DNA of 64,000 bases from an uncultured Candidatus Saccharibacteria bacterium (GCA_964554805.1 CAZKPX010000003.1:76366-140365), one strand, 5' to 3'. Shown: positions 7,143 to 44,073, numbered from the stretch's first letter. Notes: a model not told the origin generated them from the sequence alone. Numbers and translations are program-made.

Positions 7143-7178
7143 GACGGGCGACGGGCGACGGGCGACAAGCGACGAGCG
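7143..7178 (+). repeat. (GCGACR)n hexanucleotide microsatellite, intergenic copy
   Basis: acgggcgacgggcgacgggcgacaagcgacgagcg. Preceded by the hairpin cactcgac-tctcg-gtcgagtg. Confidence 0.85.
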
Positions 7179-7194
7179 CTAGTAATATGAAGGA

Positions 7195-7228
7195 AGACCC
7201 GAGTCTGTGGATGGCTCGGGTCTTTTGG
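7195..7228 (+). terminator. Rho-independent terminator after htrA
   Basis: agacccgag...ctcgggtct stem followed by TTTTGG. Confidence 0.6.
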
Positions 7229-7549
7229 TGTAATTAGTGCTACTATAAATTTATGAAAAAGGGTAAAGGCGGTGACGAATAAGTTTGTTACTCAATTTAG
7301 TCGGTTTGACTCAAAGCACTGGGTATAGATGTTACTCTTTAAACTTGAAGAATGAGTAATTTATTGCACTATGGTCAGATGTGGACCAATGGATTGATTT
7401 ATGCTGGATGATGAGAGCTGCAGTTTAGCCTCAAAATGTAATATTTTTGAACTATTACTAAGCTTATGTCTGATTATTTTGTCTATATTAAAGTTGTACG
7501 ATAATCTATTATCGACTTCTGTTACAGCGAAACCTATTCTAACCTAAGA

Positions 7550-8329
7550 CTATTCTACAACCACTATTTGACCATTGGTTGTTTCATAGGCTAGCAAACT
7601 TTTCGGTTTGCGATGGTCTTTGGCTTGGATGACTAATTGCTGATTGAAGGTGTCGGGGTGAGCGCCACTGACAAGGGCCTGTTTTGGCTCATACTTTCTA
7701 ACATTGAGCGGCAAGTCTTGATACTCTTGATTGGAGATATAGGGCAAATTGGCGACAATAACGTCGCATGAATGGGGCTGGAGCATGTAGGACAGTGGGC
7801 CCAGGAGAGAGCCTTGGACAAAGGTGACATTGGTAGTTTTGAGTGCCTGAGCATTTCTTCTGGCTACGGTCAAGGCGGCTTTGGAGGTGTCTATGGCAAT
7901 AACTGAGGCTTGGGGTAGCTCTAGAGCGATGGTGATGGCTAGGCAGCCGCTACCTGTGCCGACATCGATTATTGTAGGAGGTAGGATGTTGGAGGTAGGG
8001 TGTAGTTGGTTTAGGTGGTTGAGGGTCAGGTGGATGAGTTGTTCTGATTCGGGGCGGGGGATGAGGGTGTCGGGAGTAACGATAAACTTGCGGCCGAAGA
8101 ATTCTTTATAGCCTAAAAGGTAAGCAAGCGGAGCGTGCTCGGCTGCTCGGCTGACTAGTTGTTCAAATTGGCGTAATTGCTGTGGAGTAATCTCTTTATT
8201 CAGATTTGTCCATAATTGCTCTTGTGACAACTTGCAGGTATTCGCAAGTAGCTGACGAACAATGGTGGTGTGGTCTTGTAGATGAGCAAGATTGGTGTCG
8301 GCTTGAGTGAGGGCTTGGGTGATGGTCAT
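7550..8329 (-). CDS. prmC: Release-factor glutamine N5-methyltransferase (PrmC/HemK)
   Basis: SAM motif IIDVGTGSGCLAITIA and the NLPY variant of the NPPY substrate motif (VIVANLPYIS). Immediately downstream of prfA. Confidence 0.85.
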   Translation of the reverse strand: MTITQALTQADTNLAHLQDHTTIVRQLLANTCKLSQEQLWTNLNKEITPQQLRQFEQLVSRAAEHAPLAYLLGYKEFFGRKFIVTPDTLIPRPESEQLIHLTLNHLNQLHPTSNILPPTIIDVGTGSGCLAITIALELPQASVIAIDTSKAALTVARRNAQALKTTNVTFVQGSLLGPLSYMLQPHSCDVIVANLPYISNQEYQDLPLNVRKYEPKQALVSGAHPDTFNQQLVIQAKDHRKPKSLLAYETTNGQIVVVE

Positions 8330-8348
8330 GGATTAGGTAGGTAGATAG

Positions 8349-8396
8349 TGAGGAGGAACAGGGAGGAGGAACAGGGGGGAGGAGCAGGGGGAAGAG
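8349..8396. repeat. Purine-rich (GAGGAGGAACAGG)n tract between prfA and prmC
   Basis: gaggaggaacagggaggaggaacaggggggaggagcagggggaagag. Same family as 386-478. Confidence 0.7.
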
Positions 8397-8397
8397 T

Positions 8398-9498
<1,101 letters not shown>

Positions 9499-9507
9499 GG
9501 TTTACAT

Positions 9508-9861
9508 TTAGCCCTTGTTGGCGGCGTCTTGAAGCATTTCGCGCAGTGATTTTGGACGATCGCTGGTCTTTTTGTCAGCTACGATTGGCTCAACAGCTTT
9601 GGCGTTGGTGGTCGTGAACACTGGCTGAGGCTTGGCTTTCTTAGGCTCAACTTTGATAGTACCCTGAGAAGCACGACGCTCGAATCGCTCAACGCGACCT
9701 TCGGTGTCAATCAGCTTTTTCTGACCAGTAAAGAATGGGTGACAGTTGGAGCAGATATCAATGCGAATAGACTGAACAGTAGATCCTGCTTCAAAACTGG
9801 CGTTACAACCAGAGCAGTTGATGGTAGCTTGGTAAAATTTTGGGTGAATGTTTGCTTTCAT
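9508..9861 (-). CDS. rpmE: 50S ribosomal protein L31 with a roughly 45 aa Lys/Pro-rich C-terminal extension
   Basis: MKANIHPKFYQATINCSGCN...CSNCHPFFTG is the L31 core with its C-x-x-C zinc ribbon. The tail is unusually long, giving 117 aa. Confidence 0.85.
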   Translation of the reverse strand: MKANIHPKFYQATINCSGCNASFEAGSTVQSIRIDICSNCHPFFTGQKKLIDTEGRVERFERRASQGTIKVEPKKAKPQPVFTTTNAKAVEPIVADKKTSDRPKSLREMLQDAANKG

Positions 9862-9936
9862 AGTTTTAAAAAATCCCAGATTTGAATTGTTCGGAGAGGA
9901 TTATATCACAGCTTTACTGTTGCTGGCAATATCTTG

Positions 9937-10027
9937 GAGCGACGAGAACGAGCGACGAGCGACGGCTGGGATTCAATTCTCCCAGTTTCCTGCCAGCCAG
10001 GCCCGTCGCCCGTCGCCCGTCGCTCGA
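9937..10027. repeat. Inverted pair of (GCGACR)n arrays forming a long imperfect hairpin
   Basis: Forward gagcgacgagaacgagcgacgagcgacggctggg at 9937-9970 and reverse cccgtcgcccgtcgcccgtcgctcg at 10002-10027, with a central ctggga...tcccag hairpin. Confidence 0.75.
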
Positions 10028-10051
10028 ATCTGCACGAGAGGGCAGATTCGT

Positions 10052-10744
10052 CTATTTGCCGAAGCGGCGGTGGCGGGTGGCGTAGTCTTGGAGGGCTATG
10101 TCTAGTTGGGTAGCGTCAAAATCGGGTAGATGGAGGTCAGTGAAATAGAATTCGGCGTAGATAGCTTGCCACGGTAAAAATCCGCTGGTCCGTTTTTCGC
10201 CTGAAGTTCTGATAATAAGGTCAATATCGGGTTGGCCTGCCGTATCAAGGTGGCTGGACAATGTTTGTTCGTCTAGCTGGCTACTATCTAAGCCCTGGGC
10301 AGATAATTTTTGGATGGCACGAATAATTTCGTCGCGTCCACCGTAGTCCAAGGCGATATTAAGGTGCTTGTCGGTGAAATGAGCGGTGGTTTGTTCGAGT
10401 TGGTGGAGTTTTTTGAGTAAGGGAGCCGGTAGCCTATCTTGTCTGCCTAGGTGGTGGAAGGCTGTTTGATTGGCAATAATTTGATCATTTAGCTGATCGA
10501 GGGCAGTGGAAAATAATTTGAACAGATAGCCCTTTTCTTCCTCTTGCCGTTGCCAATTTTCAGTGGAGAATCCCCACAGAGTAAGGACCGGAATGCCAAG
10601 CTGGTTGGTGTGATTGACGAGCTGCTTGATTCGCTCAAAGCCGCGACGATGGCCTTCTAGGCTGGGTAGATTGTGCTGCTTGGCCCAACGACGATTGCCG
10701 TCAGGGATAATAGCGATATGTTGTGGGAGATGTTCTGTTGACAT
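10052..10744 (-). CDS. uppS: Undecaprenyl-diphosphate synthase (cis-isoprenyl transferase)
   Basis: IIPDGNRRWA, GHRRG and FSTENWQR motifs. Confidence 0.9.
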   Translation of the reverse strand: MSTEHLPQHIAIIPDGNRRWAKQHNLPSLEGHRRGFERIKQLVNHTNQLGIPVLTLWGFSTENWQRQEEEKGYLFKLFSTALDQLNDQIIANQTAFHHLGRQDRLPAPLLKKLHQLEQTTAHFTDKHLNIALDYGGRDEIIRAIQKLSAQGLDSSQLDEQTLSSHLDTAGQPDIDLIIRTSGEKRTSGFLPWQAIYAEFYFTDLHLPDFDATQLDIALQDYATRHRRFGK

Positions 10745-10984
10745 ATAAAAAGTAGGAGTTAGGACTGCTATTATACCATAATTTATCGAGAAACGATAAA
10801 CGCCAATTTTATTGTCCTGGGAATAGCATCAAAATTGTAAATGATTTGTGATTCGAAGTATAGCGTATGTTGGCAAGATAAGGGGAAGGTAAACGTTGAG
10901 GAGGTTGGAGGTAGGAGGTTGAAGGTGGTCAAAACCTTAAACCCTAAACCCTAAATCCCTCTACCTCCAACCTTCTAGCTCGGT

Positions 10985-11974
10985 TTACTTGTGTGGGTGG
11001 CGGGCGTGGAGGGCTTGTTTGGCGGGCATGCTTTGGGCGGCTGATCTGCCTCCGGGCTGCTTGAGGGCTAGCCAGATGCCGATGACGGCTAGTCCGGCAC
11101 CAAGACTGTAGGCCCAATGAATTGATTCGTTGAGGAAGATGACAGCTAGAATTATGCCGGCTAGTGGTTGAACGAATGTTAGGACCCCGACTTTGTGGGC
11201 GGTGGCGAACTCGAGCGCCCATTCGTAGAGCCAGTAGGCGATAACTGATGAAGCTAGACTAAGATAGATAATCCCCCAGGCTACTTGGGCGTTGAAGTGG
11301 CTGAACAAGTTGGGATCTTGGAGGTATTCCCAAGCTGCCAAGGGCAGAAAACTGATCATGCCGACGATGAAGGAGACGGTGGTGATGGCGATGGGCGAGA
11401 AATTGTGGTTGAGCTTTTTGGAACCGATGGCATAGACGGCTACCGCAATGGTGGAAATGAGAATACCAATGTTGCCCCAGAATGAGTGATGCGTAGCGGT
11501 GCCGTGGGTGGTGAGCGCAATCATGACGCCGAAGGTGGCCAAGCTTAAGCCGAGAATGTTGGTGGTAGTTTTGAACTCTTTGAGGAATATCCAACCGGCG
11601 GCACAAATCATCAGGGGAGCTAAGGCAATAATGATGCTGGCATCAAGCACTGAGGCGCTGGCAATGCCGACGAAGAAGAAGCCTATTTGAATGGTGATGC
11701 CGACGAAGCCGAGGGCAATCAACTGCCATATTTTGACCTCAGAAATCTTTTTGAGAGATCGACGCTGACTATCTTTGATAAAAAAGGGAATCAGGAATAA
11801 ACTGGCCAGGCAGAATCGAAGCAGGAGGGTGGTAAAAACTGGAAATTGTTCTATGGTGACCTTTGAAACGACACTGGTGCCTCCCCAGATAGATAGGCAG
11901 AGGATAAGGCAGGCGTAGACGATGAAGGAGGGTGGGCGGCGTTTGGGCATAGCATTGGATATTGTATCAGACAA
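10985..11974 (-). CDS. EamA/DMT-family transporter (10 TM)
   Basis: Two EamA-like five-TM halves, highly hydrophobic. Start may be the internal MPKRRPP at 11950. Confidence 0.65.
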   Translation of the reverse strand: MSDTISNAMPKRRPPSFIVYACLILCLSIWGGTSVVSKVTIEQFPVFTTLLLRFCLASLFLIPFFIKDSQRRSLKKISEVKIWQLIALGFVGITIQIGFFFVGIASASVLDASIIIALAPLMICAAGWIFLKEFKTTTNILGLSLATFGVMIALTTHGTATHHSFWGNIGILISTIAVAVYAIGSKKLNHNFSPIAITTVSFIVGMISFLPLAAWEYLQDPNLFSHFNAQVAWGIIYLSLASSVIAYWLYEWALEFATAHKVGVLTFVQPLAGIILAVIFLNESIHWAYSLGAGLAVIGIWLALKQPGGRSAAQSMPAKQALHARHPHK

Positions 11975-12362
11975 GCATTGGATAGCTCAAAGGGGGGGAT
12001 AGAGGTGGGAAAATCCTAAATCCTACATTCCTCGACCCATCTTTTTGTGTGTCATTTTTTCAAATCAAATAAACATGACTTGGTGGCTTTGATTGGGTAT
12101 GGGTGAGATGTGTTGTGATTGCATACCTCTTTTTGGTCAGGCTGGGAGACCAGTATTTGATATGAAAGAAATGAATACAGGGGTTTATTCTTCAAACACA
12201 GAAGGCAGAAGGCGGGAGACTGTCTACATCCTTCCTCCAGCTGGCGGATCCTATATCCTCATGATCGTCCCTACATGCTTGTTGCTTGACGGTGGGGGCG
12301 GGATGAGGCATGCTAAGTTGGTTAGACTAGTGCAAATCATTTGAGAAAGGTATACTGGTGCT

Positions 12363-13010
12363 ATGGAAATTACATGGTTTGGCCAATCGGCTTTTAAAAT
12401 AAAAACAAAAACTGCCACGATCATCATTGATCCCTTTAAGTCAGATAAAATCGGCTTGCCGTGGAAGAGCCAGTCGGCAGATATTGTGCTGATTAGCCAT
12501 GATCACGATGACCATAATAATGTGGCTGGAGTAGATGGCGGTTTTGTGGCAACCGGCCCTGGTGAATATGAAGTTAAAGAGATATTGATGAGTGGCGTAC
12601 CTTTGTTCCATGACGCTGTTAAAGGGGCTGAGCGAGGCAAGAATACTGCCTACACCATGGAAGCCGAAGGTATTACTATTTGCCATTTAGGTGATGTAGG
12701 GCACAAGCTGACCGGAGAACAAGCAGAGGAGCTATCTTCTGCAGATGTGGTGATGGTGCCGGTTGGTGGAACCTATACGGTTGATGGTGCGACGGCGGCT
12801 GAAATCGTCAGTCAGCTGGAGCCAAAAATTGTTATTCCCATGCATTATGCAATTCCGGGAGTTATTGATAATCCTAACTTGAGCGGTCTAGAAGATTTCT
12901 TTAAAGCTTTGGGCAAGGAAGTTTCAGAGTCAGTGCCAAGCCTGAAGGTGGGCGAGAAGATAGGATTGCCTGAAGAAATGCAAATTGTGGTACTACAGCC
13001 TCAAAAATAG
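12363..13010 (+). CDS. Metallo-beta-lactamase-fold metal-dependent hydrolase (UPF0173-like)
   Basis: SHDHDDHNN His-x-His-x-Asp-His zinc motif and the conserved small-MBL N-terminus MEITWFGQSAFKIKT. Confidence 0.75.
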   Translation: MEITWFGQSAFKIKTKTATIIIDPFKSDKIGLPWKSQSADIVLISHDHDDHNNVAGVDGGFVATGPGEYEVKEILMSGVPLFHDAVKGAERGKNTAYTMEAEGITICHLGDVGHKLTGEQAEELSSADVVMVPVGGTYTVDGATAAEIVSQLEPKIVIPMHYAIPGVIDNPNLSGLEDFFKALGKEVSESVPSLKVGEKIGLPEEMQIVVLQPQK

Positions 13011-13169
13011 CCGTGGACTATTCCACGAGAATATGGAATATTGGGTATAGAATATAGAAGGAGCTAGTTAGCTAATAGCTGGCGAGACGCGAGACATGGA
13101 TATTGGCAGAATAATGGCTATGGCCTATATTCGATATCCGATATTCGCGACTGTAAGGAGCTAGTATTT

Positions 13170-14594: not shown

Positions 14595-14622
14595 AAACAG
14601 CCGAGCAATCGGCTGTTTTTAG
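14595..14622 (+). terminator. Rho-independent terminator after dnaB
   Basis: aaaaacagccgagcaatcggctgtttttag. Confidence 0.7.
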
Positions 14623-14775
14623 TGAGACGCGGGGTGCAGCATCGCTTTGATTCCAGGTCTATATCCGAGTTTCCTGTCTGGTGTCTCGCCACCGTAGGTG
14701 GCTTGGCCTGTGGCTTATAAGTTTGAAAATTGACTAGATTTGTAGTATAAGCAGGGTGTCTAGGCAAAGGCTTAG

Positions 14776-15645: not shown

Positions 15646-15672
15646 AGCGAAAATAACTACAGTATTGTCTGT

Positions 15673-15700
15673 AAGGGGTGCCTATTCGGCACCCCTTTTG
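15673..15700 (+). terminator. Rho-independent terminator
   Basis: aaggggtgcc-tattc-ggcacccctt followed by ttg. Confidence 0.65.
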
Positions 15701-16015: not shown

Positions 16016-16044
16016 TTGACAGAGGCCTATAGTTGTGGTATAAT
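16016..16044 (+). promoter_or_regulatory. Near-perfect sigma70-type promoter: TTGACA, 17 nt spacer, TG-extended TATAAT
   Basis: ttgaca at 16016-16021, spacer gaggcctatagttgtgg, tataat at 16039-16044 with tg immediately upstream. About 180 nt upstream of the 16225 ORF. Confidence 0.6.
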
Positions 16045-16792: not shown

Positions 16793-16855
16793 AAAAGGAG
16801 GAGTGAGGAGGACAAGTGAGGAGGAGAAGTGAGAAGGAGAAGTGGGGAGGGGGAG
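16793..16855. repeat. Purine-rich (AAGTGAGGAGGAG)n tract after the stop codon
   Basis: gaaaaggaggagtgaggaggacaagtgaggaggagaagtgagaaggagaagtggggagggggag. Confidence 0.7.
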
Positions 16856-17370: not shown

Positions 17371-17457
17371 GGCCGGAGTGGTGGAATGGTAGACACGGCG
17401 GACTCAAAATCCGCTGCCGTAAAACAGCGTGGAGGTTCGAGTCCTCTCTCCGGCACC
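17371..17457 (+). tRNA. tRNA-Leu (anticodon CAA), class II with long variable arm, CCA encoded
   Basis: gccggagtggtggaatggtagacacggcggaCTCAAAAtccgctgccgtaaaacagcgtggaggttcgagtcctctctccggcacca. The 7-bp acceptor stem pairs, anticodon loop is ctCAAaa, T-loop is ggttcgagtcc, 3' end is CCA. Confidence 0.85.
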
Positions 17458-17675
17458 AGATATATATTCCCATCTTTGGATGGGAATATATATCTGGTCT
17501 CCTGCGAGAGGCGAAACCTCCAGGGTTCGTTTATAGTCAGGAGCTATGTAGCCGCCAGAGCTGCATGGTGGAAGGCTATAATCCATGAGCGTAAGCGAGT
17601 GTTACTCTCTCCGGCAAATATACAGATCCCTCGACTTGGCTCGAGATGACGAATGGGTTAAAGAAAGGTTTTTAT

Positions 17676-18364: not shown

Positions 18365-19183
18365 ATGTTTATGGAACCTGAATTGGTTTTGACTTTACTT
18401 AAAATTGCTGGAGTGTTTGTTGGATTGAGTTTTATAGTGTTTTGGGTGGGGTTGGTGTGGTGGGTTAGTCAGGATGTGACGAGTCGGACAAATGACAAGA
18501 TTATATTGGCGGCGGCCGTGGCTTTTGCGACTATCTTTGGACCGGTGGGGGTGCTGCTGTATTTGATTGTTCGGCCTAGACAGACTATCAAAGAGAGCTA
18601 TCGGGAGATGCTTGAAACAGAGATAAATCGTAAGCTGGCCTCGATGGATATGGCTTATTGCCCATTTTGTGGGGCTAATTTGGAGCGTGACGCACATGTG
18701 GCGCATCCGGATCAACTAGTGATGACTGAAATAGAAGAGCAGGTTGTGTATGATCCTCAGATTGCTGAACAGGCTATGGTTGGACGCAGCAAAACGAAGT
18801 TGCCTCAGACGCGCAAAGTCGTTGATGGGGGCAAGCTGTTGAGTGTTCGTGTTAGTCGGAGTGTGGTGTCGATGACGAAAGCTACGGCTAAGGGATTGAC
18901 CTTTTTGCTAACTCCGTTGCCGGCTCAGGAGAGGACTGATGCTAGCGACGAGCGGCTAAGTACTGGCGACGGGCGACGGGCGACGGGCGACGAGGTGAAA
19001 ACAAAAACTACTGGCGACGAGGTGAAAACGAAAAATACTGGTGACGGGGTGGATGTTGTTGTTGAGGAGAATGGGGGTGGGGGGAAGCAGGTTGAGTTTG
19101 CGCAAAAGTCTCGTCCGGTGACTAAGAAGAAGGCTGCTAGTAAGTCAGCTAGTCGAAGTGGAGCGCGTCGTGGTAAGAAATAG
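18365..19183 (+). CDS. Hypothetical membrane protein with zinc-ribbon-like motif and a repeat-encoded C-terminal tail
   Basis: Two N-terminal TM helices and a CPFCGAN Cys pair. The C-terminal 80 aa are low complexity, encoded by (GCGACG)n (ATGDGRRATGDE) plus a 27-nt tandem repeat (TGDEVKTKT x2.5). Confidence 0.45.
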   Translation: MFMEPELVLTLLKIAGVFVGLSFIVFWVGLVWWVSQDVTSRTNDKIILAAAVAFATIFGPVGVLLYLIVRPRQTIKESYREMLETEINRKLASMDMAYCPFCGANLERDAHVAHPDQLVMTEIEEQVVYDPQIAEQAMVGRSKTKLPQTRKVVDGGKLLSVRVSRSVVSMTKATAKGLTFLLTPLPAQERTDASDERLSTGDGRRATGDEVKTKTTGDEVKTKNTGDGVDVVVEENGGGGKQVEFAQKSRPVTKKKAASKSASRSGARRGKK

Positions 19184-20507
19184 CGCTGGGCGAGCGACGG
19201 GCGACGGGCGACAGGCGACGAGTGTTGATGAGCTTGATTCTCGGGTGGTGGCTGAAAAGCTTGATAATGGTTTGCCGGTGCTGTTGCAGCCAATGGAGGC
19301 TGTGCCGTCGACGGCGGTATTGGTGTTGGCGAAGGTTGGGTCTCGGAATGAGCAGCAAGCTGAGGCCGGGGTGGCTCATTTTGAAGAGCACATGGTATTT
19401 AAAGGCACCAAAACTAGGCCGACTACTTTGGATATTTCGGCAATTGTTGATGGGTTGGGTGGGGAATTTAATGCTTTTACTAGCAAGGATTACACCGGAT
19501 TCTATATTAAGACTGCCGCCAAAGACTCGTCAGTGGCGGTTGAGTTGTTGGCTGATATTTTGTTTGACTCCAAATTTGACCAGGCCGAAGTGGATAATGA
19601 GCGTCAGGTGATCATCGAAGAGATGAATATGTACCAGGACACACCACGCGATCGAGTGGGTGAGTTGTATGACAATTTATTGTATGGCGACCAGCCCTTG
19701 GGCCGAGATATTATCGGCACCAAAGATAGCCTGATGTCGATCCAGTCGGAACAGTTAAAAGCTTTTAATAAGAAATGGTATGGTAGCGATAATCTGTTGG
19801 TCAGCGTGGCCGGATCGATGGATTCGTCGGCTATGCTGTCATTGGTTGATACGCATTTTGGTGGACGGACAGCGGGTTGCGTTGATGCGTTAACTCCGAC
19901 GACCTTTAGTCAGGATGCGCCGGCTATGCAGGTTGTGCAAAAGGAAACCGATCAGACTCATGTGGTGGTGGGGGTGCGGAGTTTTGCGGCTATGGATGAT
20001 CGACGACAGGCTTTGTCATTGCTCAACATTATTTTGGGTGGCAATATGTCGTCTCGGTTATTTATTGAGGTCAGAGAAAAGCGCGGTCTGGCGTACGCGG
20101 TGCATTCGTCTATTGATTCATATACAGATGTGGGGGCTTGGTCATGCCAGCTGGGTTTGGATCATAGTCGACTAGGCGAAGCTTTGTCGGTGGTTTTGGA
20201 GCAAATGGCTTCGATTCGCGATAAGGGCATTGATCAAAAAGAGTTGGACCGAGCCAAGAGTTTTGTGCGTGGTCGGATGGCATTGTCGCTTGAAGATCCG
20301 TTGAGCTTGAATATTTTTGCGGCTAAGCAGCAGTTGCTGTATGACAAGCTGGAAACTGTTGATGAGTTGTTGGCTAAAATGGAAGCTGTGACAGCGGAGC
20401 AAATTCAGGCGGTGGCTGATGATATATTTGTTGGTCAGGGGTTGAATATGACTGTGATTGGACCAAAAGCGGATGAAGAAGATTTGCGTCGTCGGTTAGT
20501 GCTCTGA
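19158..20507 (+). CDS. M16-family zinc peptidase (pitrilysin/insulinase-like, inverted HxxEH)
   Basis: GVAHFEEHMVFKGT is the HxxEH zinc motif, with a second E further on and the typical two-domain length. The extreme N-terminus overlaps the previous gene and is encoded by a (GCGACR)n copy, so the true start is probably later. Confidence 0.8.
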   Translation: MERVVVRNSAGRATGDGRQATSVDELDSRVVAEKLDNGLPVLLQPMEAVPSTAVLVLAKVGSRNEQQAEAGVAHFEEHMVFKGTKTRPTTLDISAIVDGLGGEFNAFTSKDYTGFYIKTAAKDSSVAVELLADILFDSKFDQAEVDNERQVIIEEMNMYQDTPRDRVGELYDNLLYGDQPLGRDIIGTKDSLMSIQSEQLKAFNKKWYGSDNLLVSVAGSMDSSAMLSLVDTHFGGRTAGCVDALTPTTFSQDAPAMQVVQKETDQTHVVVGVRSFAAMDDRRQALSLLNIILGGNMSSRLFIEVREKRGLAYAVHSSIDSYTDVGAWSCQLGLDHSRLGEALSVVLEQMASIRDKGIDQKELDRAKSFVRGRMALSLEDPLSLNIFAAKQQLLYDKLETVDELLAKMEAVTAEQIQAVADDIFVGQGLNMTVIGPKADEEDLRRRLVL

Positions 20508-28550: not shown

Positions 28551-29292
28551 GAAGGCTAAGGGTGCGACGAGCGACGAGCGACGAGCGACGGGAATAGATG
28601 GTGAGGTTATAGCTCTGGTTTTGCCGCCGGTGCTGTATGAGGATGATGCGATAATGGTGCTCAATAAGCCGGCTGGGTTGGTGGTTGAGAAGAGCCATAC
28701 TCATTCGCAGGTAACCTTGCAGGATTTATTGCCGTTTGCTGATGAGGTGGATAGGGCTGGTTTGGTGCACCGGCTTGATCGAGATACGTCCGGAGTAATG
28801 GTAGTGGCAAAGACTAATGACAGTCAGGCTGCGCTGCAAAAGCAATTTTTGGAACGAACTACTGATAAAGAGTATATGGCTTTGGTGTGGGGTAAATTGG
28901 CAGATGATCATGCTGTCATTAATGCGCCGATTGCCCGTCATCCCAAGATTGGCTATAAATATGTGGTAATGGACGGTGGGCGGGATGCTAAGACTGAATT
29001 TTGGCGGCTTGGCGAGTATAAACTAGCCGATGATGTAGCAAGCTTGATTAAAGTAGATCTTCATACTGGTCGGACACATCAGATTCGGGTTCATATGATG
29101 GCCATGGGCCATGCTTTGGTTGGTGATACAGTCTATGGTCGTCGAAAGGATAAATCTGCAATTCGACAATTTCTGCATGCCTCGAAGCTCAGCCTGCAAC
29201 ATCCAGCCACCGGGAAGACCATGACCTTTGAGGCACCGCTGGCTGATGATTTGCAACGATTTTTGGATGGCTTGAAGCAGACGAATGAGTAG
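28534..29292 (+). CDS. RluA-family pseudouridine synthase
   Basis: HRLDRDTSGVMVVAKT catalytic Asp motif, LYEDDAIMVLNKPAG. The N-terminal 25 aa are encoded by a (GCGACG)n copy (ATSDERRATG). Confidence 0.8.
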   Translation: MPARNKKAKGATSDERRATGIDGEVIALVLPPVLYEDDAIMVLNKPAGLVVEKSHTHSQVTLQDLLPFADEVDRAGLVHRLDRDTSGVMVVAKTNDSQAALQKQFLERTTDKEYMALVWGKLADDHAVINAPIARHPKIGYKYVVMDGGRDAKTEFWRLGEYKLADDVASLIKVDLHTGRTHQIRVHMMAMGHALVGDTVYGRRKDKSAIRQFLHASKLSLQHPATGKTMTFEAPLADDLQRFLDGLKQTNE

Positions 29293-29307: not shown

Positions 29308-30165
29308 GGTTGTGGTGGCAACTTCGGGTTGTGGCAACTCCGGGAGTTGCCATCTGGAGAAACACCGGTATAAGGCGGTGTTTTATTCGAGCAAAAGGTG
29401 CTTTATTGTTTCTAAGCTCTGTTGATATTTCGATCTGTTTTTAAGATAGCTGCGATAGCTTGTTGGATGATTGGGGTTGGAGTTGAATTGATTGAGAATA
29501 ATTTGTGGTTCGACGCTTACTGTGGGAGATGAGGTAGTCGACAGGTATCTGCCAACTGACGACCAGGGATAGTAATTGTTATCCTCTATATTTTTGACGA
29601 TATGAGATGATAGTGGGTTGAGGTGGATATATCGAGATAGATGAAATAGCTGTAATTCAGTTTCAACTAAAACCCCTTTAAACCTTCCTTGAAAGAGGCT
29701 GCCTGATCTGGAGTGTTTTTTATTTATATACTTAGCATAGCTATCTTGCCACATTGCTTGGAATCTCTCGATGCCGTTTGGACTCTCCTGCCGCAGCAAT
29801 AAATGATAATGATTAGGCATTAGAGCAAAAGCAATAATACTTATTTGGGGATGATTGTTGCTTTGTATTTGAGTATCAGCAGGTAGGCGAATATACTTAG
29901 AGTAGGGTAGCGGCTGATTCTGTAGTCGATAGTAGTCTAAGAGTCTAAGGCATCGCTGATAATCGGTGGAGTGAAAAAATATTGGTTGATGATCAACGCC
30001 TCTGTTGAAAATGTGATATATCTGGCTTTGGATGAGTGGTAGACGTCTTTTTGGCATTATGTTGTTTCTATACAGGGGGATAATTTGAAAGTCAACAGGC
30101 AGGCGTGTAAAAATGTGTGTTATGTGGTACCGGGGTTGTCTGAGTTGGCAACTCCCGGAGTTGCC
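29308..30165. mobile_element. REP-associated tyrosine transposase unit: IS200/IS605-like TnpA flanked by inverted 19-nt REP-like palindromes
   Basis: Left palindrome ggcaactccgggagttgcc at 29333-29351, preceded by the partial copy ggcaacttcgggttgtg. Right palindrome ggcaactcccggagttgcc at 30147-30165 is the exact reverse complement of the left one. Confidence 0.7.
29383..30057 (-). CDS. IS200/IS605-family Y1 (HUH) transposase, REP-associated tyrosine transposase-like
   Basis: HUH motif PNHYHLLL and a catalytic Tyr in RYIHLNPL. About 225 aa from the internal ATG at 30057. The 373 aa six-frame ORF is an upstream read-through. Confidence 0.75.
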   Translation of the reverse strand: MPKRRLPLIQSQIYHIFNRGVDHQPIFFHSTDYQRCLRLLDYYRLQNQPLPYSKYIRLPADTQIQSNNHPQISIIAFALMPNHYHLLLRQESPNGIERFQAMWQDSYAKYINKKHSRSGSLFQGRFKGVLVETELQLFHLSRYIHLNPLSSHIVKNIEDNNYYPWSSVGRYLSTTSSPTVSVEPQIILNQFNSNPNHPTSYRSYLKNRSKYQQSLETIKHLLLE

Positions 30166-31977: not shown

Positions 31978-32018
31978 GGCTGTCAAAGCGACAGGCGACA
32001 AGCGACAAGAACAAGCTA

Positions 32019-33245
32019 ATGGCATTTTTTACTATTTTGAAAACTGACACTAAAACCAAGGCTCGACGGGGAGTTATTTCGACGGAGCATGGCGATATTC
32101 AGACGCCGGCATTTTTTCCGGTGGGTACGCAGGGGACTGTTAAGTCATTGTCTCAGCAAGAGTTGTGGGATATGGGGGCGCGGTTGATTTTGGGTAATAC
32201 CTATCATTTATATTTGCGTCCGGGAGCTGATATTGTGGCAGAAGCGGGCGGTTTGCATGAGTTTCAGCAGTGGAAGGGGGCTTTGTTTACTGATAGTGGA
32301 GGGTTTCAGGTGTTTAGTTTGGGGTTGGGACTGGAGAATAAGCGACAGGCGACGAGCGACAGGCGACGAGAGGGGAGTCAGAAGGTGGATGCGATACGTC
32401 ATTTGCCTCAGGGGATGTTGGCTAAGGTGGATGAGGAGGGAGTAACTTTTAGGTCTCATTTAGATGGGTCGATTCATCGGTTTACGCCGGAGATTTCGTT
32501 GGCTACTCAGCATAAGATTGGCGCAGATATTATTTTGTCTTTTGATGAGTGTGCGCCGCATCCTGCCAGCTATGACTATACTCGTCAGGCAATGGAGCGA
32601 ACTCATCGATGGGCTAAGCGAGGACTTGATTATCATCAGGAGCATAAGCAGAGCCATCAGCATCTGTTTGGCATAGTGCAGGGTGGGGTGTATGAAGATT
32701 TGCGAGTGGCATCGGCCAAGTATATTGATAGCTTGGACTTTGATGGGTATTGTGTCGGCGGAGTATCAGTAGGGGAGTCTAAGGAGGAAATGGACAGGGC
32801 AGTTCGCTGGACCACGCCTTTGCTCGACCCGAGCAAGCCTCGACACTTGTTGGGAGTGGGGGATATTGATGATATGTTCAGAGGGGTGGAGCAGGGCATT
32901 GATACCTTTGATTGTGTGACACCGACTCGGTGGGGGCGCAATGGGACATTGATTGTTCACCCTGAAACAGCCAAAGAAGAAGGTTCGGCCAATCCGTATC
33001 GACTGATTATTACTAATAATAAATATCGAAATGACTTCCGACCGCTTGATCCACGCTCCGACAACTGGGCCAGTCGCACCTATAGCCGAGCTTACCTGCA
33101 CCATTTGTTTAGGGCTAGTGAAATCTTGGGTGTGCGGATTGCTTCTTATCATAATGTGGCGACGATGTTGCAGTTGGCTGAAAAGATGAGAGCCAGCCTA
33201 GAGGATGATAGTTGGGATGCTTTGAAGAAGGAATATTTGGTATGA
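32019..33245 (+). CDS. tgt: Queuine tRNA-ribosyltransferase with a repeat-encoded insertion and a degenerate zinc site
   Basis: Conserved motifs [27 protein letters not shown] and [9 protein letters not shown]. A 28 aa insert ([18 protein letters not shown]) is encoded by (GCGACR)n at 32335-32372. The CxCxxC zinc ligands are replaced ([11 protein letters not shown]). Confidence 0.85.
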   Translation: [408 protein letters not shown]

Positions 33246-37575: not shown

Positions 37576-37594
37576 TATTAACGAGGAGGTTGTT

Positions 37595-38743: not shown

Positions 38744-38886
38744 ATTTCCCTGCGGTTGTATGGGTGAGGTAAGGGTGGTTGGCCTCGGGGCATCTGTGCT
38801 CGGGCACTTCCCGATACGAGTACGAGTGACGAGGACGAGTTATTGAAAGAGGTTGGTCGAAGTTTATGGGTAGGAGTAATAAAATA

Positions 38887-38913
38887 GAGACCCGGGAGGG
38901 TCTCTATTTTTTA
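38887..38913. terminator. Bidirectional rho-independent terminator between convergent genes
   Basis: agagaccc-ggga-gggtctct followed by tttttt. Confidence 0.65.
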
Positions 38914-39732
38914 GTATTCGTTGGCGGAGTAGTTGCCGTCTTCGTCTTCTCTCATTTGCTCGAGAGAGACAGAGTCGAAGTCGTCATCGGGGTGGTTGCT
39001 GCTATCAGCACTTTCGCTATCCCAGTTGTCTACTTCTTCATCGACTAAATTGCCATCAGCTAATGGATCGTCGCTGGCGAGATGACGATCTCGGGCAGAT
39101 AGGTTGGCGTGACTAGTGGAGGAGTGACTCTTGGTGAAGGATATAAACTTGCTGGCTGCAGCTGATTGGTGGAGTTCTCGTAAAAAAACTTGAGGTTGAT
39201 CAGAGGTGCTCATCAGGTGGGCTGAATAGGTGTTGCCGAGACCGATAAGATTTTTGAGATGGCTGCTGAGGTCTTCTTCGAGGAAGCCGAGAACCTGGTC
39301 TTTGGGAGAGAGTAGGGCTAGCTGACCGTTTTTATCAGCAATTTCTAGTTGTTGACCAGAGGCGAATTTGGCAATCTTTTTTAATTCAGGTTTGAAAATA
39401 TTAGCGATCCGGGTGCGACCTGGCTCGTCTAAGAAAAGCTCAGTATGAGAATGGCTAAGGCTGAGAGATGTGCCATGAATCAGCTTTTCAAGGTTTTTTT
39501 GAGCGATAGAATTGTAGGGGTCGATGTCAAGGACTTGTTGATAGGTTTGTTTGGCCTGGTCCTTTTGGCCAGTTTCTTGGAGCGCTCTGGCTAAACGGTT
39601 GAGAGTCTCAATGCTTTTGGGGTTATCCTCGAGATATTCTTTGTTGAGAGCAATCGCTTCTTGCCATTGTTGACCAAGGGCGGCTTTGACAGCTCTGCTG
39701 GCTAAATCTTCTAGTTCTAAAACGGTTTTCAT
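38911..39732 (-). CDS. TPR-repeat protein with an acidic C-terminal tail
   Basis: Three to four TPR-like helical repeats (AIALNKEYLEDNPKSIETLNRLARALQETGQKDQAKQTYQQVLDIDPYN). The C-terminal 80 aa are D/E/S-rich. Confidence 0.5.
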   Translation of the reverse strand: MKTVLELEDLASRAVKAALGQQWQEAIALNKEYLEDNPKSIETLNRLARALQETGQKDQAKQTYQQVLDIDPYNSIAQKNLEKLIHGTSLSLSHSHTELFLDEPGRTRIANIFKPELKKIAKFASGQQLEIADKNGQLALLSPKDQVLGFLEEDLSSHLKNLIGLGNTYSAHLMSTSDQPQVFLRELHQSAAASKFISFTKSHSSTSHANLSARDRHLASDDPLADGNLVDEEVDNWDSESADSSNHPDDDFDSVSLEQMREDEDGNYSANEY

Positions 39733-39998
39733 GAGGTCTCCTTATCCAAGTGGCTGCATATAGACGAGCTGTATTATACCGAAAGTTTTTAAAATTACAA
39801 TATTAACGGAAATGACTTGTCTGGGATGCGATCAAAGAGGCAGCCGTCTCAGATAACTAGCTGGCTTTGGGTATTGATCTTTGCTATAATAAGGGTCGTT
39901 TTACGGCTTGTCAATAATAAGTATGTGGATTTGATCAAGCAGAATATCAATTAAAAGGGCTAGTTTGATTGTTATAGACGAGTGAAAGGATTTTTGTT

Positions 39999-40706
39999 AT
40001 GTCAGGACATAGTAAATGGTCAACTATTAAGCGAGCCAAGGGCGCGGCTGATGCCAAGCGTGGTTTGCAATTTTCAAAATTATCTCGGGCTATTACTGTA
40101 GCTGCTAAGCAAGGTGGGCCGGATCCTGCAGCTAACTTGCGCTTAAAAATGGCAGTTGAAGCGGCCCGTGCGGCAAGTATGCCTAAGGATACAATTAATA
40201 GAGCCATCGAAAAAGCCAGTGCTACGGGTGGTGATTCTATTGAGGAATTAGTGTATGAAGGGTATGGCCCTGGTGGAGCAGCCTTGTTGATTGAAGTGCT
40301 GACTGATAATCGCAACAGATCAATTGCTGAGGTGAGGACTATCTTGAATAAGAATGGCGGAAGTATGGGTGACTCCGGATCGGTGGCCTGGCTGTTTAAG
40401 AATCAAGCTATTATTGAGCTGGCGATAGCGGGGCATGATGTTGATGAGTTGTCTATGGCGGCCATTGAGGCCGGTGCTAATGATTTGAATGCTGAGGATG
40501 ATCGATTAGTGGTTTTGAGTGATGTGGAGGCAGCTGGAGCCGTTGTCGAGGCGTTGTCGGTCTATGGCGATGTGGCGACTACCAGTCAGTTGATGCCAAA
40601 TACTCCACTAGAGCTATCTAAAGAAGATGAGGAGAAATTGGTGCATTTGGTGGAGCTTCTGGATGATAATGATGATGTGTCCAATGTGGCGACAAATGCG
40701 CTTTAG
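39999..40706 (+). CDS. yebC: YebC/PmpR-family transcriptional regulatory protein
   Basis: MSGHSKWSTIKRAKGAADAKRG is the invariant YebC N-terminus. 235 aa. Confidence 0.9.
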   Translation: MSGHSKWSTIKRAKGAADAKRGLQFSKLSRAITVAAKQGGPDPAANLRLKMAVEAARAASMPKDTINRAIEKASATGGDSIEELVYEGYGPGGAALLIEVLTDNRNRSIAEVRTILNKNGGSMGDSGSVAWLFKNQAIIELAIAGHDVDELSMAAIEAGANDLNAEDDRLVVLSDVEAAGAVVEALSVYGDVATTSQLMPNTPLELSKEDEEKLVHLVELLDDNDDVSNVATNAL

Positions 40707-40761
40707 AACGAGGGTGCATATAGAGTAAGATTTAGACGAGCTGATAGAAAGTTGGCTGATT

Positions 40762-41559
40762 ATGGTAACAATTACATGGCCGAGGGTACGTATTGCTAAG
40801 CGCCAGAAGCTGGTTTTGTTGTCGATTGGCTTGACAGTATTGATGGCTGGTAGCCTGATTTTTAGTTGGCCATTATGGAGCGGCTTATTGTTGGTAGGTT
40901 TGGCTTGGGTAGGTTTGGCTTACTGTTTTGAGTGGGACTTGAAGGCGGAGGAGTGGCTATTAATTCCATTGCCGTTGTTAATGGCAGTTAGCGGAGCCTT
41001 TGGTTGGCTCCGATTGTACTCGGTGACGCCTTGGCTGGTGACTGTTGGCTGCTTGGCGTTTGGCATAGCAGTCTATGGACTGTTGCTGACGCTAAATATT
41101 ATTAATTTATCTCGAGTTAAAACGTTGCCATTGGCCAGAACTGCAACAAGCGTGTTGTCGATGGCCAGTCTGACAGTTGGCTTCTTATGGTATTATTTGT
41201 GGCTCTATTATCAGCCGGCTTATATAGTATGGGTGACTGGAGCGATTTTGATTAGTCTGGCTGTTGCTTGGCCGATTATATGGATTGCATTGACAGGGAA
41301 GATGGTAGTGTGGCGTAGTTTGGCCTGGCTGGGTTTGTTGGGACTGATTATGGGTCAATTGGCGGCTTTGGTGGGCTTGTGGCCGCGGTCATTTATGACT
41401 AGTTTATTTTTGGCTGGAAGTTTGTACCTGGTCTTGGGCGTCATCCATTATCAGGAGAAGCGGCAGGTTAATAAAATAATGAACCGTCAGTATACGGTGG
41501 TATTTGGCATCATGTTGGTAGCGTTGTATGTATTTACTAGTTGGTATGGTGGGATATAG
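40762..41559 (+). CDS. Hypothetical polytopic membrane protein
   Basis: 7-8 hydrophobic helices, Trp/Leu-rich, no motif recognised. Confidence 0.45.
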   Translation: MVTITWPRVRIAKRQKLVLLSIGLTVLMAGSLIFSWPLWSGLLLVGLAWVGLAYCFEWDLKAEEWLLIPLPLLMAVSGAFGWLRLYSVTPWLVTVGCLAFGIAVYGLLLTLNIINLSRVKTLPLARTATSVLSMASLTVGFLWYYLWLYYQPAYIVWVTGAILISLAVAWPIIWIALTGKMVVWRSLAWLGLLGLIMGQLAALVGLWPRSFMTSLFLAGSLYLVLGVIHYQEKRQVNKIMNRQYTVVFGIMLVALYVFTSWYGGI

Positions 41560-41939
41560 CAGCTAACCTCCGAGGTTCGGCGGTTAGGGCGACGAGCGAC
41601 GAGTACGCTTTGGGTATTTATCTGGGATAAGGGTGGGGAATAGAGGAGTTAATTGGCAGGGGGTGGGGAAGAGCGATAACTCATAGTTTTGTACTATAGG
41701 ACATATTTTCCATAAAAGTGAGCGTGGAAAGTTAATTTTGTGGATATCTTGGTTGAATGGAAGAAGTGAGCAGGAGGAGAAAACAGGGAAAAATGATACA
41801 GTATGATGCAGTTGGGTGAAGGATATTGAGGCGGAGTGGAGTGAGAGGGGTGATTGATAACGATTATTGATAATTGCTATAGGTCTTCTTTTAACAAGGA
41901 TTGAGCTCAAGGGCGCAATCTAGGCAAGTTATGAATATA

Positions 41940-43080
41940 CTATAGGGTATTTGTTTACTCAAAAAAAGAGTGGTGACTGGAGAGAGTGGAAGTGGTGGAT
42001 AGGGGTAAAAAAATTGGCAAAAATTTGGATGAATTTGGCTTTGACTGGGCAGATAAGGCGAAAATAAACGAAATTTTTGGGAAAATTTTACGAATTTTGA
42101 GGCTAAAACCTAAAATTTGTCAGGACGATAGGTGGACTGCTAATGATAAGCGTATGGATGAGGATATATGGAGCTGATCGACTGGCTGATTAGATAGTTT
42201 AGTTGAGGCTAAAACTCGATTTAGGGGCTCAGGTGTAGGAAGAGTTGGGCCGCATTAGGAATGAATTTTATGGTGGATTGGTATATGGTGGACCTCTCTC
42301 GCTCTGCTGGCGGCCGAGAGAGGTGGTCTTGTAGCCTACTACACGTCTCTAAAGATACATTTAAAGACGTCTTATTTAATTTCACAAATCAGCTCTCCCC
42401 TATGGATTTTGTTACATACAAGACTGCAAATATTTACTAAAATTTTCGATACTATTTGGCCTTTCTGCGGCTGGTCCACTAGCCTCAAAATGCTGTATCT
42501 GAAAAATTATCGAAATTTTGCCAATCTGTTCCCTATTTGAGGCTAAGCTTCGGTAATTTGGGTGATCGTTGTGCGAATTTGTGGCTAATTTAGGCCGTTT
42601 TGCCCGACCTCTCTCCCCTGCTCGGCAGCTTTTAGCAGGTAATACTGCCCTGGTGCTGGCAATTTTAGGCACAACTGGCAGGCTGGTCGTCTTGCCTGCC
42701 AAGGGGTTGCGCAGGGGGATGGTTACCAAAGCTTGTTAAGAGCTTTGGTGAGTGACGGGCGACGGGCGACGAGAGGGTGTGTGGATAGTAGGATTTGGGC
42801 TGTTTTTTATTCGGGATGCGTATCAACACGTCGCTTGTCGCACGTCTCTGGATTTTTTAGCCTTGTGACAGCTAAATTAGGTAGCGAGGCGCTAGAAGGG
42901 GTCTAGATGGCGTTTTGGTAATTTAGACCTTTCAATATACCTATTTGGTTTTAATTTGAGTGGCATATTCTCCTGCATGTATGAATTATGATGATTTTGA
43001 GACATGAGACATGCCTAGCTGACCTCCGGAAGTGTCTGAGATCGCTTGCATCTTGACGGCTGACGCTTTACCCTAGATAC
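41940..43080. other. 1.1 kb non-coding stretch upstream of the recombinase, carrying at least 6 copies of a TTTGAGGCTAA(AAC) motif in both orientations plus short hairpins
   Basis: ttgaggctaaaac at about 42105 and 42203, tagcctcaaaatg at about 42481, ttgaggctaagc at about 42537, related ggctaatttagg and ggcaattttagg, hairpin cctctctcg...cgagagagg at 42292-42322. Only weak small ORFs. Confidence 0.5.
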
Positions 43081-44073
43081 ATGTCTGCTGTTAAGCCATT
43101 GGTTACTGACTTTATTGAATACTGTGAATTAGAAAAGAACTTGTCGCAGGGGACGGTTCAGATATACGACTTTTATCTAGGGCACTTTGATGAGTGGTTA
43201 GATAAGACTCAGGGGGCGTCGACAACGGTTGAGGATATAACCTACGACATGGTTAAGGATTATCGATTATTCCTGACTAGGCAGGTTAGCGAAGTGACTA
43301 GGCACGGGTTGAAGCGGTCGTATCAGAACTATTTCTTGGTAGCTATCAGAGCTTTTTTAAAGTTTCTAGCTAAGCGTGGCTATACGGTGCTGTCGTCTGA
43401 CCAGGTGGAGCTGGGGAAACAGGGAGATAGAGTGGTTAAGTTTTTGGATGATAGTCAGCTACAGAGGCTCCTAGAGGCTCCAGATACCACGACCATAGAG
43501 GGGTTGAGGGATAGGGCAATTCTTGAAACTTTATTCTCGACGGGTTTGCGTATTGCGGAGTTGGTTGGGTTGAATAGAGACTCAATTAACCTTGATAAAC
43601 GTGAGTTTGGCATAATAGGCAAGGGGAGAAAGGCTAGAGTAGTGTTCCTGACGGAGACATCTTGTTATTGGCTGGAGCGTTATCTGAGGCTGCGTAAGGA
43701 TGATTACTCTCCCCTTTTTATTCGCTATAAGGGCAAGAAGCACCAATTGGATGATAAAAAGGGTGAAGATCAGCGATTAACGACTCGGTCGATGGCTCGG
43801 ATGGTTGAAAAATATGTCAAACAGCTGGGTCTGCCGGTTAAGGCCACGCCGCATACTTTGAGGCATAGTTTTGCGACTGATTTATTAATTAACGGAGCTG
43901 ATTTGCGGAGTGTTCAGGAGTTGCTAGGGCACTCTAACATTTCGACAACTCAGATATATACTCACGTTACAAATAGTCAATTGCGAAATGTTCACAGTAA
44001 GTTCCATAGTGGGAATGCCTCTCCGTCAGATGGCGGGTCGGAGCGACCGACGACCAGCGACGAGGACGAGTAG
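43081..44073 (+). CDS. Tyrosine site-specific recombinase (XerC/XerD/integrase family) with a repeat-encoded acidic C-terminal tail
   Basis: Catalytic R (GLRIAEL), HTLRHSFAT (H-x-x-R), LGHSNISTTQIYTHV (nucleophile Tyr). The tail ...SERPTTSDEDE is encoded by cgaccagcgacgaggacgag. Confidence 0.8.
   Translation: MSAVKPLVTDFIEYCELEKNLSQGTVQIYDFYLGHFDEWLDKTQGASTTVEDITYDMVKDYRLFLTRQVSEVTRHGLKRSYQNYFLVAIRAFLKFLAKRGYTVLSSDQVELGKQGDRVVKFLDDSQLQRLLEAPDTTTIEGLRDRAILETLFSTGLRIAELVGLNRDSINLDKREFGIIGKGRKARVVFLTETSCYWLERYLRLRKDDYSPLFIRYKGKKHQLDDKKGEDQRLTTRSMARMVEKYVKQLGLPVKATPHTLRHSFATDLLINGADLRSVQELLGHSNISTTQIYTHVTNSQLRNVHSKFHSGNASPSDGGSERPTTSDEDE

Follow-up and report, generated by a model that had tools for sequence, protein, structure and literature searches.

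Heptanucleotide repeats are described, in the accounts cited here, as the most abundant class of long simple sequence repeats (SSRs) in many bacteria and are attributed there to polymerase slippage (Mrazek 2007; PMC4679880, PMC4692102). Xanthomonas carries about 185 arrays of GGGAATC, mostly with four units and some of them arranged as inverted pairs (Rehm et al. 2015, PMC4692102). The same work describes arrays of GGGGA(C/T)T in Nostoc and cites short tandemly repeated repetitive sequences (STRRs) in Calothrix (PMC4692102). The 'Maribeggiatoa' genome has 169 sets of TAACTGA with 2-6 copies, a minority of which are found at protein ends, where they encode a cycle of 7 residues (MacGregor 2015, PMC4679880). 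It has been proposed that these repeats of the Beggiatoaceae are cis-acting elements on RNA or single-stranded DNA which bind a protein and act at mRNA ends (PMC4679880). No paper mentioning both 'Saccharibacteria' and 'heptamer' was found. Here we describe a dispersed heptanucleotide repeat family with the unit GCGACRR in DNA from an uncultured Candidatus Saccharibacteria bacterium (GCA_964554805.1, CAZKPX010000003.1:76366-140365). The whole stretch of 64,000 nt that was analysed is referred to as the window, and positions are counted from its first letter.

The GCGACRR repeats are real, statistically robust and far beyond chance. Three tandem cores (GCGACRRGCGACRRGCGAC, at most 1 mismatch) gave 14 matches at 8 loci, compared to 0.00 in dinucleotide shuffles (n=100), and long periodic runs are numerous at period 7 only (6 observed, 0.0 in shuffles). 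The family consists of eleven arrays with 2-5 units each, which are found between 7.1 and 42.9 kb (about 36 kb), and it accounts for 7 of the 10 period-7 loci in the window. The original prediction, made from the sequence alone, had taken the unit for a hexanucleotide, GCGACR, but the period is 7. This value was assigned by Tandem Repeats Finder at 7143-7178, 9937-9964, 10001-10023, 18965-18992, 19194-19220, 28564-28590, 31986-32009, 32340-32367, 41589-41603 and 42754-42771. Close spacings from one GCGAC to another are exactly 7 in 20 of 26 cases and 6 in 0 of 26, and the pattern GCGACR x3 has no match in the window even if 2 mismatches are allowed. The hexamer model is thus ruled out, and the unit is a heptamer with the variants GCGACGG, GCGACGA, GCGACAG and GCGACAA. 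The prediction was right in that spacers and in-frame protein segments share a single short unit, with 7 intergenic and 4 coding arrays. The repeat is also present at all ten places that it had listed, but one of these, at the C-terminus of a recombinase gene (44043-44070, + strand), has only the degenerate copy GCGACCGACGACCAGCGACGAGGACGAG without a Tandem Repeats Finder call. This may be a decayed array at most, and it was excluded from the family count. Conversely, a copy at 42828-42841 had been missed.

The arrays differ in the variant of the last two unit bases that prevails in them (GG, GA, AG/GA or AA), as would result from a separate homogenisation of each locus. When arrays with at least 2 exact GCGAC cores are counted, 9 arrays are on the + strand and 2 on the - strand (at 10003 and 42828), and both - strand arrays are inverted partners of nearby + strand arrays. 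That nearly all copies are on the + strand, as had been stated, is thus correct for 9 of 11 arrays, but the bias is only suggestive and falls short of significance (two-sided binomial p = 0.065).

Head-to-tail units of 7 nt (at least 2), recurrence at many loci and a mainly extragenic location are properties that the family shares with dispersed heptanucleotide SSRs. It does not represent clustered regularly interspaced short palindromic repeats (CRISPR), as the units have only 7 nt and are contiguous, without spacers. Neither do the arrays behave as miniature inverted-repeat transposable elements (MITEs) or other small mobile elements, as their flanks are unrelated apart from partial units; terminal inverted repeats and target-site duplications were not found at any GCGACRR array. 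Sets of at least 4 G3 tracts with short loops, as in a G-quadruplex, are not found in most arrays. GGG tracts result only from arrays of the GCGACGG variant, with at most 3 per array, and there are almost none in the arrays at 28564, 31986, 32340 and 41588. A G-quadruplex role was rejected because G tracts are absent from most unit variants. An assembly artefact was rejected as well, because the arrays have at most 37 nt and are the same in two independent Logan assemblies (SRR16798008 and SRR16798009), in which the window sequence is identical.

Seven of the 11 arrays are located in the non-coding 12.4% of the window that is without long open reading frames (ORFs) (p = 9e-5), and three of them are found 25-29 nt past the stop codons of htrA, uppS and the gene at 40762-41559. 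For comparison, we used the syntenic relatives L127 and L003 (both from CAZHWT01), L128, L150 and L151, together with L189, a contig that carries tgt. The htrA array (7143-7178, + strand) has about 5 units (GACGG GCGACGG GCGACGG GCGACAA GCGACGA GCG) and lies in the 3′ untranslated region (UTR), 29 nt past the stop codon. It is directly 3′ of the hairpin CTCGAC-TCTCG-GTCGAG and upstream of another hairpin that is followed by TTTT. The uppS-rpmE spacer contains an inverted pair. Its antisense arm is an array of about 4.5 units on the + strand (9937-9970), one unit of which is short by a base (GAACGA); the partner, GCGACGG x3 on the - strand (10001-10027), is found 25 nt past the uppS stop codon, directly after a hairpin. 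For this pair a stem of -60.9 kcal/mol (z = -4.9) is predicted, just upstream of a strong promoter-like site of rpmE, TTGCCA-N18-TATAAT, which agrees with 11 of 12 consensus positions. The spacer has 190 nt here, compared to 95 nt in L128, and the extra sequence contains the inverted array pair.

The spacer between the Na+/H+ exchanger gene and tgt has only 41 nt, most of which is occupied by an array on the + strand (31986-32016; GCGACAG GCGACAA GCGACAA and the decayed unit GAACAAG) that ends 10 nt before the tgt ATG. At this junction the genes of the relatives overlap or have almost no spacer. A short array on the + strand, GCGACGA x2 (41588-41604), is found 29 nt past the stop codon of the gene at 40762-41559, directly after the hairpin CTAACC...GGTTAG. 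The last two arrays form a second inverted pair in a gene-poor region of 1.5 kb upstream of an Xer-like recombinase gene. GTGACGG GCGACGG GCGACGA (42752-42776, + strand) directly follows the hairpin CCAAAGCT-TGTTAAG-AGCTTTGG, and its first 22 nt are identical to 7139-7160. Its partner is GCGACAA GCGACGT (42828-42841, - strand), and the predicted stem of this pair is weaker (-40 kcal/mol, z = -2.4). The hairpins which adjoin the arrays have sequences that are unrelated to one another. Elsewhere in the window there is a perfect palindrome of 42 nt (5696-5737; ATAACCTCCGAGGTTCGCTAG and its complement). Its core, AACCTCCGAGGTT, which has 8 matches with at most 2 mismatches where 1 is expected, is shared with the hairpin that precedes the 41588 array (41563-41587).

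The four coding arrays are located in a protein tail or in a variable, low-confidence loop. Sequence comparison shows that these copies are truly in frame and do not result from mis-called gene boundaries, because the flanks of the array are conserved on either side in the orthologues of Tgt, of the zinc-ribbon protein, of the M16 peptidase and of the RluA-like protein. Insertions had been announced for at least five protein genes, of which these four remain. In the zinc-ribbon (DZR) membrane protein (18365-19183), a short GCGACGAGCGGC piece is followed by GCGACGG x3 and one GCGACGA (18945-18994, + strand, phase 1), and the array encodes TGDGRRATGDE in the C-terminal low-complexity tail. All orthologues end with a low-complexity Lys/Ser-rich tail (...SG-x-x-KR/KK), and the conserved basic C-terminal end resumes in frame 3′ of the array. 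An in-frame tandem repeat of 27 nt that encodes TGDEVKTKT (18986-19051, + strand, 2.4 copies) is built on the last heptamer unit and is a secondary duplication within the tail of this protein.

The array of the M16 peptidase (19188-19224, + strand, phase 0), GGGCGA GCGACGG GCGACGG GCGACAG GCGACGA, encodes GRATGDGRQAT in the N-terminal tail. The gene starts with GTG at 19170, in an overlap with the stop codon of the zinc-ribbon gene before it, and the protein begins with M-V-R-N; in the relatives, the GTG start is found inside the end of the zinc-ribbon gene and the protein begins with M-P-K-N. The array-encoded SAGRATGDGRQATSVDEL adds 18 residues ahead of the conserved ...L-x-N-G-L. In the RluA-like pseudouridine synthase, GCGACGA x3 and one GCGACGG (28564-28592, + strand, phase 0) encode ATSDERRATG in the N-terminal tail, which is about 14 residues longer than in L151. 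The protein starts at ATG 28534 with MPAR, its L151 orthologue with MPAK, and an overlap of 17 nt with the response-regulator gene is the same in L151. Alternative starts (GTG 19245 for M16, TTG 28621 for RluA) were rejected because the relatives keep the overlapping-start architecture as well as the first residues, M-[PV]-[KR]-N for M16 and MPA[KR] for RluA. Thus, in both proteins the array has been inserted into the N-terminal tail.

The fourth coding array, (GCGACAG GCGACGA) x2, is inside tgt (32340-32372, + strand, phase 2), where it gives rise to residues 108-118, KRQATSDRRRE. The loop that contains them, between the DSGGFQV catalytic strand and LAKVDEEGV, varies among lineages and has 14-83 residues (median 34) in all Patescibacteria homologues (110 sequences). 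The AlphaFold model of Tgt has a mean predicted local distance difference test (pLDDT) score of 87 overall, but of only 36-50 over residues 101-131. In the sequence of the Z. mobilis TGT structure there are no residues at the insert, where the alignment breaks between chain residues 112 and 114. All coding copies are thus hosted by hydrophilic, variable or disordered segments. The original prediction, that the arrays are tolerated as hydrophilic segments which form terminal extensions and an internal loop in tgt, is in agreement with this placement of the coding copies and with the low pLDDT of the Tgt loop.

Relative to their ORFs, the coding arrays have the phases 1 (18966), 0 (19194), 0 (28564) and 2 (32342), and the degenerate copy at 44043 has phase 2. 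The arrays are therefore not always in the same frame, as had been assumed from their common peptide. Three heptamers have 21 nt and thus 7 codons, GCG ACG GGC GAC GGG CGA CGG, which are translated to A-T-G-D-G-R-R. As 7 and 3 share no factor, every phase results in the same peptide, a hydrophilic cycle of 7 residues (A-T-G/S-D-G/E-R-R) of which the other phases give cyclic permutations, and all coding copies look alike. The common peptide is thus a matter of arithmetic and not of frame preference. In addition, all six frames are free of stop codons, as these need both T and A, of which the former is missing from the unit and the latter from its complement. Being open in all six frames, the arrays can therefore sit in genes and lengthen ORFs. 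Gain or loss of one or two 7-nt units shifts the frame, and changes are neutral only in steps of three units. Coding arrays are thus poor generators of length polymorphism, contrary to the proposal that the repeat may drive such polymorphism.

GCGAC arrays were found neither in L003/L127, L128, L150 and L151 (15-31 kb of syntenic DNA) nor in L189. The Tgt proteins of these relatives are 70-78% identical to that of the window (72% for the uncultured Saccharibacteria metagenome-assembled genome CAZHWT01, to which L003 and L127 belong), and the best database homologues are named Patescibacteria. At 78% identity, the L189 protein is the nearest Tgt on record, with a loop of 7 residues and no array upstream. 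Arrays of other heptamers do occur in the relatives. In CAZHWT01 there are eight in 31 kb, each with a different unit; one was found in L151 and none in L128 and L150. One of the CAZHWT01 arrays, (AAACTCG)5, encodes KLETRNS in the same Tgt loop, at another position. Heptamer arrays have thus originated repeatedly within this clade, with the Tgt loop as a tolerant site. GCGAC arrays are absent from the 5.8 kb to the left of the window, where one array of a different heptamer and one with period 13 are found. Copy-number variants were not found by exact-sequence and protein-cluster look-ups, which returned single-member clusters, with one population on record. Within the window, period-7 arrays of other units (GGAGGTT, AAACCCT, AGAATAT, ATATTCG) occur in spacers at 10900-10960, 13028-13059 and 13127-13147. 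The lactamase_B-dnaB spacer of L127, which by gene order corresponds to the window spacer with the 13028 and 13127 arrays, has a heptamer array with yet another unit.

The unit also occurs outside this clade, as arrays of three GCGAC units plus a core were found in at least 120 unrelated metagenome contigs. Among the matches listed, contigs with 60-70% G+C prevail, all are unrelated to this genome, and in many of them the GCGAC array has other heptamer arrays beside it. Three control heptamers of equal composition gave 9, 16 and 12 hits in viral contigs, where the GCGAC unit gave 19. As the controls are about as common, the unit is not special globally, and a universal or horizontally spread special motif was rejected on these grounds. 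Two further properties do not extend to the unit in general. Hairpin adjacency is weak in the unrelated contigs (4.8% vs 2.1%, p = 0.047), and the orientation of 82 metagenome arrays is not associated with GC skew (40 to 40).

The window has several other features that deserve mention. In every block of 2 kb, the GC skew of the + strand is between +0.07 and +0.37. Third codon positions have a skew of +0.40 in genes on the + strand and of -0.48 (sense strand) in genes on the - strand, so that the asymmetry belongs to the DNA strand and not to transcription. Extreme skew is also found in L189 (+0.38), with values of -0.08 to +0.11 in the more distant syntenic relatives. A greedy ORF map places 46 genes on the + strand and 12 on the - strand. 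A second dispersed tandem family has period 13 (AGTGAGSAGGAAC) and occurs at 392-469, 8347-8397, 16794-16852, 41765-41790 and 63438-63500, as well as to the left of the window (L148, 6240-6311). It is accompanied by related heptamer or nonamer runs of AGTGAAC and GGGGAGTGA. Its copies are found directly past stop codons or between genes, and they are purine-rich on the + strand even between - strand genes.

An uncalled gene for a protein related to REP-associated tyrosine transposases (RAYT; REP, repetitive extragenic palindromic) is encoded on the - strand (ORF at about 30056..29383). Its HUH motif (NHYHLLL) and its Tyr motif (RYIHLNP) are intact. The protein scores 24.9 bits with Pfam Y1_Tnp and 48 bits with NCBIfam REP_Tyr_transpos, which does not reach the cut-off of 80, and it matches TnpArep (PDB 4er8) with E = 0.034. 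The gene lies between inverted arms of 38 nt (29333-29370 and 30128-30165), each with the palindrome GGCAACTCCGGGAGTTGCC, and the relatives have only a spacer of 144-207 nt at this site.

In the gene-poor region, a dif-like site with 11-6-11 architecture is found at 42343-42370 (ACGTCTCTAAA GATACA TTTAAAGACGT), about 710 nt upstream of the Xer-like recombinase gene (43081-44073). The sign of the GC skew is unchanged there. The site is identical in L003 (20247-20274), where Tgt is 72% identical, though the flanks differ, and a gene-poor region of 1.2-1.5 kb around the site is present in all relatives. The motif GAGGCTAA(A/G)... is repeated at 42100, 42207 and 42540, with a reverse copy at about 42474, within the gene-poor region 41986-42600. 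No Rfam family reached its gathering score in this region, and in the whole window only tRNA-Leu did. At the 3′ end of the tRNA-Leu(CAA) gene (17372-17458) begins a perfect inverted repeat with arms of 20 nt and a loop of 4 nt (17455-17498). Two large repeat proteins are encoded, one of 822 residues (47585-50053) with internal repeats of about 132 nt and one of 1625 residues (58570-63447) with Cys-rich repeats of about 183 nt (DCKIAY / FADCD motifs).

The explanation that we favour, with moderate confidence, is that GCGACRR represents a lineage-specific heptanucleotide SSR family which was born by slippage, homogenised locus by locus, and kept where it is harmless. Arrays would arise and become homogenised at each locus through replication slippage, and they would persist only at harmless sites such as spacers by gene ends, protein tails and a surface loop. 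Coding arrays would be largely frozen, as no net change other than by 3 units (21 nt, 7 residues) would be tolerated. The G-rich orientation on the + strand would match the extreme excess of G over C on that strand. No dedicated function would be required, and the hairpins of the two inverted pairs would be a by-product, although they may act as local RNA or DNA structures. There are several observations which do not fit easily. Dominance of one unit (7 of 10 period-7 loci) is not explained by slippage alone, the more so as the CAZHWT01 relative has a different unit at each locus. Several arrays share the edge pattern GA-(GCGACGG)n-GCGACGA-G, and a 22-mer that includes the variant first unit GTGACGG is identical in two arrays which are 35 kb apart; the shared edges and the 22-mer could be due to common descent. 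A perfect hairpin of 6-9 bp is found 0-3 nt before the start of 4 of the 7 intergenic arrays, compared to 1.2% of random positions, and simple slippage does not predict that intergenic arrays start at a hairpin foot. Finally, slippage itself was not observed, as the two assemblies are identical and no length variants are on record, from one population.

These observations leave room, at low probability, for two other readings. In the likelier of the two, the arrays would be cis-acting, multivalent sites on RNA or single-stranded DNA, to which a sequence-specific protein would bind at mRNA ends with an effect on stability, termination or translation. The dominance of a single unit among the period-7 loci is consistent with this, as are the location of six arrays at most 35 nt from a start or stop codon, the three 3′ UTR arrays that begin at a hairpin foot, the stable stems of the two inverted pairs, one of which separates the uppS stop codon from the promoter-like site of rpmE, and the precedent of TAACTGA in Beggiatoaceae (PMC4679880). 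However, the position relative to genes is inconsistent, with three arrays in a 3′ UTR, one in a 5′ UTR, two in N-terminal coding regions, one in a C-terminal tail, one in the middle of a gene, and two or three in gene-poor DNA. The neighbouring genes (htrA, uppS, M16, rluA, tgt) have no common function, single arrays lack self-complementarity, and a candidate binding protein was not identified. As arrays are absent at the orthologous sites of all relatives, any such role would have to be recent. It is improbable, in our view, that the GCGACRR arrays and the purine-rich 13-nt family are together made or used by a sequence-specific process on the leading strand instead of being passive products of slippage. 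This might be a protein that acts on single-stranded DNA or RNA at the feet of gene-end hairpins, or a seeding at hairpins that are nicked by the RAYT-like HUH enzyme. If true, such a process would explain unit dominance, the start of arrays at hairpins, and the near-uniform orientation.

A slightly smaller chance still is given to the arrays being copies of one element that was spread by copy-and-paste or recombination, with the RAYT-like HUH transposase acting at hairpins as the candidate agent. This gene (29383-30056, - strand) has intact HUH and Tyr motifs and inverted palindromes on both sides, some arrays have common edges and two share the identical 22-mer, four intergenic arrays adjoin hairpins, and the inverted array pairs resemble the REP doublets known as REPINs. 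Also, the other array-rich relative (L127) has a Y1 transposase gene. Yet the palindromes that flank the RAYT-like gene are unrelated to the arrays and are found nowhere else in the window, and a link between the arrays and this gene was rejected for lack of that relationship. Nor are the array-adjacent hairpins related to each other in sequence. Single arrays are not palindromic, they lack terminal inverted repeats and target-site duplications, and their copy number and unit variants vary between loci. In unrelated contigs, the association between hairpins and arrays of this unit is only marginal (4.8% vs 2.1%). We consider it very improbable that the arrays are contingency loci, where a change of one unit in the 5′ coding region of M16 or rluA or in tgt would switch the gene off or on (phase variation). 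Each 7-nt unit gained or lost does shift the frame, and two arrays are within the first 25 codons. But with only 4 units these arrays are well under the tract lengths that have high switching rates, and the genes concerned have housekeeping roles and are not of the surface or restriction-modification type. The four ORFs are uninterrupted in each of the two independent assemblies, variant proteins are not on record, and most arrays are intergenic.

With the GCGACRR family, a reduced, Saccharibacteria-like (Patescibacteria) genome joins the few lineages that have a dominant dispersed family of heptamer repeats. The family illustrates how a repeat with a length that is not a multiple of three can enter conserved proteins: as there is no stop in six frames, inserted arrays were able to persist in protein tails and in a surface loop of Tgt, and the same loop was filled independently, in a relative, by a different heptamer. 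For annotation, it is relevant that ORFs are lengthened by such arrays and that start codons become harder to choose. For population genomics, the arrays are candidate strain markers. The extreme strand asymmetry and two repeat families with the same orientation provide a compact case for studying the origin and dominance of single heptamer units.

The original prediction had considered such a repeat to be unusual, but dispersed heptamer families have been described in Xanthomonas, Nostoc, Calothrix and Beggiatoaceae (PMC4692102, PMC4679880). Like the long heptanucleotide SSRs of bacteria, GCGACRR has tandem 7-nt units which are over-represented, mostly intergenic and scattered; unlike these SSRs in general, about a third of its arrays are in frame inside conserved genes. 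REP/REPIN-RAYT systems are similar with respect to dispersed extragenic repeats, to inverted doublets that form long hairpins, and to the presence in the window of a RAYT-like gene with flanking palindromes. However, REP/REPIN sequences are imperfect palindromes of 20-40 nt, whereas GCGACRR arrays are direct tandem repeats of a non-palindromic unit and only two pairs fold. The hairpins here also lack a conserved tetranucleotide at their foot. Moreover, RAYT genes are flanked by the dispersed repeat itself, while here the flanks are the unrelated GGCAACTCCGGGAGTTGCC and the nearest heptamer array is about 800 nt away.

The families of Xanthomonas and Nostoc are more similar. They share with GCGACRR a G-rich dispersed heptamer, a modal number of four units, inverted pairs that form stem-loops, proximity to ORF ends, and units that are heterogeneous at one or two positions. 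Their units have G3-4 tracts and fold into G-quadruplexes, while GCGACRR has GGG only from the GCGACGG variant, and they are about equally frequent on both strands, compared to 9 to 2 for GCGACRR. The cyanobacterial STRRs (Calothrix/Anabaena heptamers, as cited in PMC4692102) are also dispersed, intergenic tandem heptamers with several units per genome, and the window likewise has further families with period 7 and period 13, but the STRRs have other units and belong to another phylum. The Beggiatoaceae repeats, TAACTGA, have in common with GCGACRR that sets of a few heptamers (2-6 copies) occur at many sites, that one unit is dominant, that a minority of copies is found in ORFs as a 7-residue cycle, and that the unit also occurs in unrelated lineages. 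TAACTGA has stops in all forward frames and is mostly found a few nucleotides upstream of start codons, whereas GCGACRR has no stop in six frames, keeps no fixed distance to start codons, and enters coding sequences in forward orientation. GCGACRR is thus a further example of a heptamer repeat type known in other bacteria, now in a Saccharibacteria-like genome, and it differs from the known families by its phylum, by a stop-free unit that enters genes in forward direction, and by its nearly uniform orientation.

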